NCBI GenBank assembly: GCA_963713615.1
Contig: CAVQMM010000001.1
Location: forward strand, 672,001 to 736,000
DNA length: 64,000 bases
DNA from: an uncultured Chlamydiae bacterium
GTDB lineage: Bacteria > Chlamydiota > Chlamydiia > Chlamydiales > JAJFMA01
Direction: 5' to 3'
The number at the start of each line of letters is the position of its first letter. The first letter of the stretch is position 1. Below the pieces are notes generated by a model. It was not told where the DNA came from, did no database searches, and saw only the letters and a program-made list of their open reading frames with translations. The translations under genes and the position numbers were made by a program. Positions 49,054 to 51,429 of the stretch are shown one piece after another.

Positions 49054-51429
49054 GTGGAAGCTCAAAGTTTTAACCCGAATCTATCTTCATTGAGGCGATC
49101 AACCGATGTGCCTCAGCCGTCCATAGAAAAAAAACAAGTAGAGCAGAGCGAAAACGTAAAAAAGACCTCAAGCCTGAGCCGATCGGGAATAGGAAGCTTG
49201 GGCAAGGCATTCTCAGATAATGTAGGCAAGAGGATGGCTAGTTTCCCCTCGATGCGGTTGCCGAGCAAACTCTTTTCTTCAAATAATGTTCAGACACCCA
49301 GACCAGCGGCTCCCCCGCGTCCCGCAAGTCTTCCCTCGCGTCCTGCAAGTGCGGAACTTGGACCAGCACGTACCCCGCCCCCCAGACCAGCACTTACCGC
49401 GCCATCCAGACCAGCACCTAACCCGCGTCCCGCAAGTCTTCCCTCGCGTCCTGCAAGTGCGGAACTTGGACCAGCACGTACCCCGCCCCCCAGACCAGCA
49501 CTTACCGCGCCATCCAGACCAGCGGTCCCCCCTCGTTCCGCAAGTGCGGAACAAAAGCCAGCAGTTCCAGCCAGGCCCAATAAATTGCAAATGGCATTTT
49601 CAAAGAATCCTGTGCGAAGTCAAGAACGCTACAAGACGATTGAACAATTAGGGAAAATCAAAAATGTATTGAGTGAATGTGTAGAGAAAAACAAAAAGCC
49701 CTATGTCGGTAGCGATGGTAAGTTATCCGCCCGTTCTGCAGGATCTGGTTTGATCGGGCAGCGTGGCCGTTCCGAAACAACCCAAGCTGGAATGGATCAC
49801 ATTCTATCGGTCATAGACAAAGCCTCGCAAGCAGGTATGTCAGATGTTAAAGGCGGAGGAAAGACGTTGGACCTGCTTGCCAGTTTACGAACCTTACCGC
49901 AGGTTGCGGCTCGCATATCAGTTGATCGCGAATTTGCTGCGCGGTTTCAAGCTGTTACGACAAACGCCACAATGGCGACAGCTAATGAGGCAGCTGGTGC
50001 GGCAGCGTTAGCAAAACCCAGGAGCACCTCGCAGGTGATAAGTGATGTGTTGCAGGAGGGGGATACAGCTACCGCTGATCTGCTCATCACCTCGCATCGC
50101 AATAATGATGAAACGCTCGATCTATTTGGAAAGGTATTGGCTCATATTGACAGCATGCCGGAGGGGCCAGCAAAGACCGTAGCCTTAGAAAGTGCGATTG
50201 CACTTGCAGAACGCTACCTTGCTGACGGGAGTAGTGTCCCATTGCAGGGAAGCGAACGAGAAAAGCTTGGAGCACAGCTAAAAAAACTATCTGACAAGGC
50301 GGCAGCTAGCGATGATCCCTATCTACAGGCTGGGGCGCAACGACTTAACCAAGCCGCTAGCGTTGCGCTTACACCTCCTTCACCAGCCCCACAGCCTGGT
50401 CAAATGCTGGATGCTGTGAATAACCTGAAAAAAGCTCCCACCGCAGAAAACGCTCGTAAAGCCTTGGCAATGCTAAACCATCCGGCTGCACAGGCCGCTA
50501 CACAGGCCCTCGTCAAAGAGCTTGAGAGTCTTGAGGCTAGCCTTAAGCAACCTCATACGAAAGAAGAAAAAGCAGAGATTGGCGCTCAAATTAAAAGTCT
50601 TGAAGCAGATAATCCTGCTTTACAGCTGCGTGCGGAGTTATCAAATTATGCTAATAGAAACCCGCCACCAATGGATTTCAACAAAATGAGTTCCAGTGAG
50701 ATCTCGAAGGCTATTTGCAATTCGATGGCTAGCAGCTTCAGTCGTATTAAACCGGCTGAAGCAGATAGGCTGGGTTGGTCCAAGGAAGCGAAAATGGAGA
50801 CCTCGCCAAATCTTATAGCGCACATAAAACTGTTCAATGATGTTTCGACATATGCGGCACATCAGATTCTGCATGCCCCCCCAGGTAAGGAACATGAGGT
50901 CGCTACAAAGATAATCAACGCAGCACATGAAGCGATGCAATCCGGTAACTATGATGCTTCTATGGCCCTTTTATCAGCTTTAAATTCAACCCCTATTTTT
51001 CGAATGAAAAACAAGGTAACTGAGAAGCTTTCTCCAGAAACGAAGGCAAAATTGGAAGAAATAAAGGGGATTACTAATAATACCAAAAGCTATTCCCTGT
51101 TGCGGGAGACAATGGGAAAACACAAGGGACCCGTTACTCCCTATGTCGGTATGTACCTCACCGACCTCACCTTTATGATGGATGGTAACCCCAATACAAA
51201 GAAAGGAGCTCTACAGGATGGAGGGGATGCCGTTTTCCTGAACAAGAATCAAATGGCTGGCGGTGTAAAGAACAAAATCATGGACTTTCAGGGTAGCCAG
51301 GCCGACCAAACGTATGAGACTAATTCCGATTTTGAATTAGCAATAGGTTTGGTTTCGCTACGTAATGACGCAGATGCAGATTCATTATATAATCGATCGA
51401 TGCAAGTAGAACCCCGACCATCATCGTGA
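49054..51429 (+). CDS. RasGEF (CDC25-like) domain protein with proline-rich N-terminal repeats; putative effector
   Basis: SPNL..HI..FN.VS......IL, GNY...MA.LSALNSTPIFRM, PYVGMYLTDLTFM.DGNPN, LY.RS..VEPR; PxxPxR-rich N-terminus. Confidence 0.85.
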   Translation: MEAQSFNPNLSSLRRSTDVPQPSIEKKQVEQSENVKKTSSLSRSGIGSLGKAFSDNVGKRMASFPSMRLPSKLFSSNNVQTPRPAAPPRPASLPSRPASAELGPARTPPPRPALTAPSRPAPNPRPASLPSRPASAELGPARTPPPRPALTAPSRPAVPPRSASAEQKPAVPARPNKLQMAFSKNPVRSQERYKTIEQLGKIKNVLSECVEKNKKPYVGSDGKLSARSAGSGLIGQRGRSETTQAGMDHILSVIDKASQAGMSDVKGGGKTLDLLASLRTLPQVAARISVDREFAARFQAVTTNATMATANEAAGAAALAKPRSTSQVISDVLQEGDTATADLLITSHRNNDETLDLFGKVLAHIDSMPEGPAKTVALESAIALAERYLADGSSVPLQGSEREKLGAQLKKLSDKAAASDDPYLQAGAQRLNQAASVALTPPSPAPQPGQMLDAVNNLKKAPTAENARKALAMLNHPAAQAATQALVKELESLEASLKQPHTKEEKAEIGAQIKSLEADNPALQLRAELSNYANRNPPPMDFNKMSSSEISKAICNSMASSFSRIKPAEADRLGWSKEAKMETSPNLIAHIKLFNDVSTYAAHQILHAPPGKEHEVATKIINAAHEAMQSGNYDASMALLSALNSTPIFRMKNKVTEKLSPETKAKLEEIKGITNNTKSYSLLRETMGKHKGPVTPYVGMYLTDLTFMMDGNPNTKKGALQDGGDAVFLNKNQMAGGVKNKIMDFQGSQADQTYETNSDFELAIGLVSLRNDADADSLYNRSMQVEPRPSS
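49314..49523 (+). repeat. 108-bp (36-aa) intragenic tandem repeat
   Basis: PRPASLPSRPASAELGPARTPPPRPALTAPSRPA occurs twice with identical DNA; period 108. Confidence 0.92.

Follow-up and report, generated by a model that had tools for sequence, protein, structure and literature searches.

We describe a gene encoding a predicted Ras guanine nucleotide exchange factor (RasGEF) at positions 49054..51429 (+) of the window, a 64,000-nt stretch of contig CAVQMM010000001.1 from an uncultured Chlamydiae bacterium (assembly GCA_963713615.1). The gene is one intact open reading frame (ORF) of 791 amino acids (aa) with a GTG start and a ribosome-binding-like GAGG ahead of it at 49045-49048. It is the single PF00617 (RasGEF) gene detected by a profile search of the whole source genome, where no second copy of any of its folded parts was found. 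It is a real gene that likely encodes an effector, a member of the known group of bacterial RasGEFs and not a Sos. Likeness to Sos, as which the preliminary description of this locus had presented the protein, is limited to the joining of SH3 ligands with a REM-CDC25 unit. New here are the assignment of a complete REM-CDC25 unit, the finding that ligand tails recur among chlamydial exchange factors (GEFs), and a common module, D1.

The sole Pfam family detected in the protein is PF00617, whose match spans aa 549-717 (E 3.5e-33; score 115.4 bits, cut-off 23.1), and the CDC25 catalytic domain, as delimited by Pfam, alignments and structure, covers aa 540-791 (50671..51426, +). An AlphaFold2 (AF2) model of aa 180-791, built from a 54-row alignment, has a predicted local distance difference test score (pLDDT) of 83. 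Its aa 318-791 superpose on REM and CDC25 together in SOS1, Rlf, RasGRP2 and Cdc25, and the scores are tied across the four (Z 30-31, root-mean-square deviation ~3, 351-360 residues aligned); structural identity to SOS1 is 17%. In this model a REM domain (aa 318-440, 50005..50373, +), detected by structure, packs ahead of CDC25, from which it is separated by a helical insertion of ~90 aa with lower model confidence (aa 445-537, 50386..50664, +). By sequence the REM domain gives no PF00618 match and at best a weak hhalign E of 0.046, and its LITSHRNN aligns with eukaryotic LLTYRSF. The preliminary description had named a C-terminal CDC25-like domain and proposed a PF00617 profile search and AlphaFold modelling with Ras/Rap; the profile match and the model, which is of aa 180-791 alone, bear out the domain and the RasGEF fold, and the model adds the REM domain that had been missed.

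The helical hairpin of the CDC25 domain is the element that releases GDP (PMC13096032). Its first helix, aa 696-713 (51139..51192, +), is well conserved in the query: it is alignable to RasGRF1, Cdc25 and SOS1, with 13 of 18 residues identical to RasGRF1 and 11 of 18 to SOS1 (counted by eye in printed alignments). In the AF2 model the hairpin is a helix-turn-helix. Among solved relatives, RasGRF1 (77.5 bits) and RalGPS1 (68.3) score above Cdc25 and SOS1 (56.3 each). A word-indexed homologue search with aa 180-791 gave two eukaryotic matches among 7996 scored candidates, and a search for related loci by the single domain found no relative.

Within the phylum, PF00617 is present in 64 of 400 scored genomes, and it was found in none of 29 genomes of a family with genomes of 1.0-1.2 Mb and in none of 14 controls. 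From 68 stretches around the stronger matches, with weaker ones left out, 76 distinct proteins (query included) were obtained, representing 45 genomes, 30 genera and 11 families. One family member comes from Candidatus Protochlamydia naegleriophila, and a same-genus orthologue of the query (P0089) is annotated as 'RasGEF domain-containing protein [Chlamydiales bacterium]'. All three same-genus orthologues keep REM and CDC25 and lack the proline tract described below; therefore, the tail is dispensable in kin. A quick tree was built from 41 chlamydial and 34 eukaryote-like domains, the latter sampled from 83 picked by REM motif, of which nine were looked up and five named, all eukaryotic. It places 40 of the 41 chlamydial rows on one side of a branch (Shimodaira-Hasegawa-like approximate likelihood ratio test, SH-aLRT, 99) and groups the query with its congeners (SH-aLRT 83), the query being at most 33% identical to any relative in it. 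As branches are long and there is no identified Sos row, the tree names no donor. The simplest reading of these sequences is that the tail was gained in the query's lineage on an old chlamydial RasGEF, and the likeness to Sos would then likely be convergent. In a protein of 2670 aa from a proteobacterial metagenome-assembled genome (P0009), several RasGEF domains are joined to one of the Ras family.

The part of the protein ahead of the catalytic unit starts with a Ser-rich segment (21% Ser; aa 1-80, 49054..49293, +), likely disordered and a putative secretion-signal region, which contains RxxSxP at aa 60 and a weak amphipathic helix candidate at aa 36-61 (hydrophobic moment 0.41). The maximum hydropathy of the whole protein is 0.92, and there is no Inc-type hydrophobic domain. 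The Ser-rich segment is followed by a tract at aa 82-177 (49297..49584, +) in which 31 of 96 residues are Pro, 20 Ala and 13 Arg, and whose DNA, 66% GC, contains nested short repeats. Repeat and composition analysis resolves it into 2.3 units with a period of 36 aa (108 nt) and nested RPA sub-repeats. Exact identity covers 34 aa or 102 nt, aa 88-121 being equal to aa 124-157 (49314..49415 and 49422..49523, +); thus the exact 36-aa duplication claimed earlier stands as a period and is two residues too long as an identity. The 102-nt identity shows that the duplication is recent; that repeat expansion is ongoing and tunes avidity, as the preliminary description proposed, is conjecture. The junction between the copies is present with no differences in contigs of two other peat studies (run X3, 49314-49451; run X4, 49255-49446), and therefore the duplication is real and not an assembly artefact. 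No joint skipping a repeat unit was seen in contigs of eight of 15 runs, whose depth on the gene (~2-6) is too sparse for copy-number variants; the other seven runs say nothing about habitat, and contig pieces that stem from RNA runs are no proof that the gene is transcribed.

The three PxxPxR motifs named in the preliminary description are all present, PAAPPR at aa 84, PAVPPR at aa 156 and PAVPAR at aa 169, and all are situated at unit edges. The first, as PAAPPRP (aa 84-90, 49303..49323, +), combines class II PxxPxR with the amoebal Abp1-SH3-type pattern PxxPx(0-2)RP. PAVPPR (aa 156-161, 49519..49536, +) is of class II and fits Px[VLI]Px[RK]. PAVPARPNK (aa 169-177, 49558..49584, +) comprises two overlapping class II motifs, is near the amphiphysin-type ligand PxRPxR, and also matches PxxPx(0-2)RP. 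What is doubled exactly is RTPPPRP, a loose class I RxxPxxP, together with RPASLP and RPASAE; no PxxPxR lies wholly within the repeated block, and the middle unit has PAPNPR, which is not PxxPxR. Hence the amplified PxxPxR repeats of the preliminary description are an inexact reading. Two of the three (PAVPPR and PAVPAR) satisfy the SOS1 SH3-ligand consensus Px[VLI]Px[RK] (PMC12268742). At the same time, class II motifs, like the amphiphysin-type ligand, are described as SH3 ligands, class II being common to many SH3 partners (PMC6773865); the notion of an SH3-ligand-type tail is retained, while its Grb2-specific framing is not. The SH3 domain of Dictyostelium Abp1 binds tandem PxxPx(0-2)RP (PMC3708727), and the two tract motifs of this type, 85 residues apart, are pattern matches only. 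Two such motifs are found in just 2 of 3097 ORFs of the source genome, the RasGEF ORF included.

Chance expectation was estimated by shuffling the tract 10,000 times. Px[LVIPA]Px[RK] occurs three times versus 0.83 expected (p 0.036), and twice versus 0.49 (p 0.076) after removal of one repeat unit, so that PxxPxR-type motifs are just modestly above the expectation from tract composition. For [RK]PxxPx[RK], a pattern picked after looking, three are observed versus 0.20 expected (p 0.0009). Genome-wide, 4 of 1517 ORFs of at least 300 aa have at least three Px[LVIPA]Px[RK] motifs.

SH3-type tails recur in the family. The density of SH3-type motifs per 1000 aa is 0.61 in the 76 family proteins, compared to 0.14 in 106 neighbours and 0.12 in the source proteome; at least two motifs are present in 8 of the 76, 1 of the 106, and 12 of 1517 source-genome ORFs, respectively. 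The eight multi-motif RasGEFs fall in 5 of the 30 genera and in four families. Counted by genus against local shuffles, class I motifs are modestly enriched (7 versus 3.6 expected, p 0.04). One RasGEF (L091) has a 25-aa tandem unit with KPLPPLP. Eight of 29 chlamydial RhoGEF frames carry a motif (some frames are partial, two loci gave none, and there is no shuffle control), one of them (L147) with 13 motifs in a tandem array. Other source-genome proteins likewise have SH3-type tails; therefore, these look like a general trait of effector tails rather than a Sos signature. Two paralogous source-genome proteins (L113:576-2309 and L114:526-1731) have long Pro/Ser tails with KPLPPVP and no Pfam match, and are candidate effectors. 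RhoGEF (PF00621) proteins (L143-L171) are found in 22 of 201 genomes of the phylum, all three congeners among them; a search of the source genome, in which no positive control responded, gave no PF00621 match. In L148/L108 a RhoGEF and a weak RasGEF match share one frame.

Between the tract and REM lies D1 (aa 186-300, 49609..49953, +), delimited by the model and profiles, and modelled as a helix, a beta-hairpin, a basic/Gly loop and helices. With an iterated profile, D1 is detected in 13 of the 76 RasGEFs. Over 301 genomes this profile matched 20. Of its 23 matches, 11 recover rows of the alignment itself; the other 12 are new but weak (E 3.5e-9 to 1.5e-4), with four RhoGEF proteins and a kinase among them. 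D1 has no Pfam match at E up to 1, no usable Atlas match and no Foldseek match under E 0.001, and the best Z of a wide structural search, 7.2, is in the background range; a new fold is not proven by this. By profile similarity, D1 appears to be an undescribed module of ~110 aa common to chlamydial RasGEF, RhoGEF and kinase proteins. As it has a basic loop and, in some members, an amphipathic insert, membrane targeting is suggested, with chaperone binding as the alternative; D1 would likely be a module for one or the other.

The bearer of the gene is an environmental chlamydia with type III secretion system (T3SS) genes. In its genome (3.97 Mb, 99% complete), SctU and SctV are above NCBIfam cut-offs and an adjoining SctW-like gene is below; sctU-sctV-sctW stand in a row, and there is a YscJ-family gene (PF01514). 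The sctU-sctV-sctW locus (L109) is on a 16.8-kb contig (C2), apart from the 3.9-Mb contig, possibly because of an assembly break. The same genome encodes a 600-aa protein with 17.5% Pro (L112:626-2428, -; C1:2682625-2684427), two WH2-like L[RK][PH]V motifs, an acidic C-terminal region whose last residues are Trp-Ala, and no Pfam match, which from its motif pattern we take to be a likely WASP/VCA-type mimic of actin nucleation. A search with it found no such gene in four relatives.

Bacterial RasGEF domains have been listed since 2011. Those of Legionella are mentioned in PMC3218107 and PMC8442362, and a list of RasGEF proteins covers Legionella, Piscirickettsia, Coxiella, Berkiella and three families of chlamydiae (PMC6925127). 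The preliminary description was silent on these effectors. Among the closest described counterparts, Wimp1 (Wcw_1131) of Waddlia chondrophila is a PF00617 protein secreted by T3SS and found at the inclusion membrane (PMC6925127). Like Wimp1, the query is a chlamydial PF00617 protein with no Inc-type hydrophobic domain in a genome with T3SS; secretion and inclusion location have been demonstrated for Wimp1, whereas for the query they are extrapolated from Wimp1 alone. By this analogy and the T3SS genes, the earlier suggestion of a secreted effector is likely correct. In the accessible text of the Wimp1 paper the words 'proline' and 'SH3' do not occur and no other domain is described (PMC6925127), while the query has an SH3-type tail, D1 and REM. 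Legionella Lpg0276/Lpp0350 are similar in having a eukaryote-like RasGEF domain in an amoeba-associated bacterium (PMC3218107, PMC8442362), but belong to another phylum with another secretion system, and were compared by description, not by sequence. In the mostly open-access literature, supplements excluded, we found no publication reporting SH3 ligands in bacterial RasGEFs, and none describing D1.

SOS1 shares with the query the REM-CDC25 unit and a disordered tail with class II motifs of the form Px[VLI]Px[RK] (PMC12268742, PMC13096032; PDB 1bkd). However, the query tail is N-terminal, the frame ends three residues past the SOS1-aligned stretch, HF, DH and PH are absent, aa 1-317 consisting of the disordered tail and D1, and the tail looks like a late lineage-specific addition. 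The layout is also reminiscent of Chlamydia pneumoniae SemD/SemC. In SemD, an amphipathic helix at the N-terminus precedes proline-rich motifs binding SNX9-SH3 and then a folded core (PMC11344771); the query has a weak helix candidate, motifs of SH3-ligand type in a disordered region, and a core that would likewise act on small-GTPase signalling. The SemD core mimics Cdc42-GTP and activates N-WASP (PMC11344771), whereas the query core has the RasGEF fold, and it is the layout, not homology, that is compared. The N-terminus of Dictyostelium PakB, a ligand of Abp1-SH3, similarly has two PxxPx(0-2)RP motifs, but these are proven and 11 residues apart (PMC3708727), versus 85 residues between pattern matches in the query.

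The explanation we favour, which in its entirety falls slightly short of an even chance, is a T3SS-injected REM-CDC25 RasGEF with an SH3-docking tail that would load Ras-family GTPases with GTP in a protist host. The Ser-rich N-terminus would very probably serve as the T3SS secretion signal. The weak amphipathic helix and/or D1 might, with an about even chance, keep the protein at the site of entry or on the vacuole membrane. The tail may, with reasonable probability, form a multivalent docking array for SH3 proteins of the host actin/endocytic cortex, such as Abp1, myosin I and BAR-SH3 adaptors, and not for Grb2 in particular. The helical hairpin would probably free GDP from Ras or Rap, and a local patch of active Ras could favour uptake or early vacuole set-up; in amoebae, Ras patches instruct macropinocytic and phagocytic cups (PMC5154761). 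Several observations count against this explanation. The tract is missing from all three orthologues of the same genus; within it, motifs of the Abp1 type are no more frequent than composition predicts (2 versus 1.09 expected, p 0.30); and the amphipathic helix is weak (moment 0.41, against 0.49 and 0.54 in two congeners, with no background distribution for these values). In the family, the regular expressions used detect no motif in 61 of 76 proteins, and by genus class II motifs are not enriched (6 of 30 versus 6.8 expected) and class I ones only modestly. The peat habitat rests on low-depth contigs, and the accessible part of the Wimp1 paper reports no exchange assay (PMC6925127).

The absence of the tract in the orthologues, its marginal motif excess, the loss of PxxPxR in the middle unit, and the GC-rich, internally repetitive DNA all agree with a RasGEF effector in which the tract is a neutral low-complexity linker, grown by slippage and binding nothing specifically. 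We consider this unlikely, given that KPLPPLP and RPLPPLP, ligands of textbook type, are found in distinct lineages of both RasGEFs and RhoGEFs, in part as tandem units, and that [RK]PxxPx[RK] is well above expectation, with the reservation noted above on how that pattern was chosen. Another possibility concerns what the duplication adds. RxxSxP is a 14-3-3 consensus, and the doubled unit could mainly provide sites for host kinases, so that phosphorylated RPASLP (twice) and RMASFP would bind a 14-3-3 dimer controlling the location or activity of the GEF. There are three RxxSxP in aa 1-130 versus 0.53 expected (p 0.011), which is unique among 1517 source-genome ORFs; the exactly duplicated block includes RPASLP, four units of the 25-aa repeat in L091 carry RxxSxP as well, and a precedent exists in phosphorylated IncG, which binds 14-3-3 (PMC1463014). 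Still, the excess was noticed after looking and weakens to p 0.049 without one unit, the family as a whole shows no enrichment of RxxSxP (5 of 29 genera versus 6.2 expected), and such binding is compatible with the docking explanation, not exclusive of it; as the main role of the doubled unit it seems quite unlikely.

Two further alternatives concern the catalytic unit. If REM-CDC25 bound a Ras-family GTPase as a trap or inhibitor, host Ras signalling would be damped; the low identity to any relative in the tree (33% or less), the changed hairpin residues in many family members and the ~90-aa insertion separating REM and CDC25 could be taken this way. In the query itself, however, the hairpin helix and the C-terminal motif stay close to eukaryotic GEFs, which makes a trap improbable. 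A true Sos mimic, binding Grb2 and activating Ras in an animal-type host, would be in line with the REM-CDC25 fold and the fit of PAVPPR and PAVPAR to the SOS1 consensus. We regard it as highly improbable: the domain order is reversed and HF, DH and PH are absent, RasGRF1 and RalGPS1 outscore SOS1 by sequence while the structural Z scores are tied, and the nearest kin are chlamydial RasGEFs with no tract. Moreover, class II motifs are not peculiar to one SH3 partner but common to many (PMC6773865), and the bacteria known to have such domains are amoeba-resisting (PMC6925127). The Sos-mimic claim of the preliminary description is thus not upheld.

The docking explanation may be extended, tentatively and as a somewhat unlikely generalization, to environmental chlamydiae having repeatedly rebuilt a Sos-like logic, in which a secretion tail acquiring SH3 ligands and multiplying them in tandem, D1 as a targeting module and a eukaryote-derived RasGEF or RhoGEF would nucleate Ras patches at SH3-marked actin cups for their own uptake by protists. 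If true, these would be the first bacterial CDC25 enzymes nucleating Ras patches at actin cups, with a WASP-like protein encoded in the same genome. Published accounts of bacterial RasGEFs, in their accessible parts, give no substrate, activity or targeting mechanism. The near-canonical catalytic helix and full REM make the query a good first candidate for exchange activity, and its tail offers a concrete targeting hypothesis in which Abp1-SH3 is the known partner in amoebae. That SH3-type tails and D1 recur in chlamydial RasGEFs and RhoGEFs suggests a general effector assembly and bears on chlamydial entry into protists.

Neighbours of the gene are a divergent lysine operon, a 160-bp element present in many copies and a pair of coiled-coil paralogues, and no secretion genes were seen among the scanned neighbours. 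The 160-bp element (48674-48833) resembles a miniature inverted-repeat transposable element, being bounded by terminal inverted repeats of 24 nt and flanked by duplications of 8 bp; the genome has 143 near-full copies, 114 of them with at least 95% identity. An Rfam scan of the window gave nothing but a tRNA, and promoter and terminator counts are no different from those in shuffles. Downstream, the low-GC coiled-coil genes (51637-52782 and 53927-55045) are on either side of msrA; their products are 35% identical over 379 aa, and their only library matches are weak ones to coiled-coil families. Elsewhere in the window there is an ORF of 2993 aa without an NCBIfam match (9318-18299, -). The region 57244-59787 (-) contains an AbiEi-like antitoxin gene with no obvious adjoining toxin partner, a degenerate TIM-like gene and a SET-domain gene.

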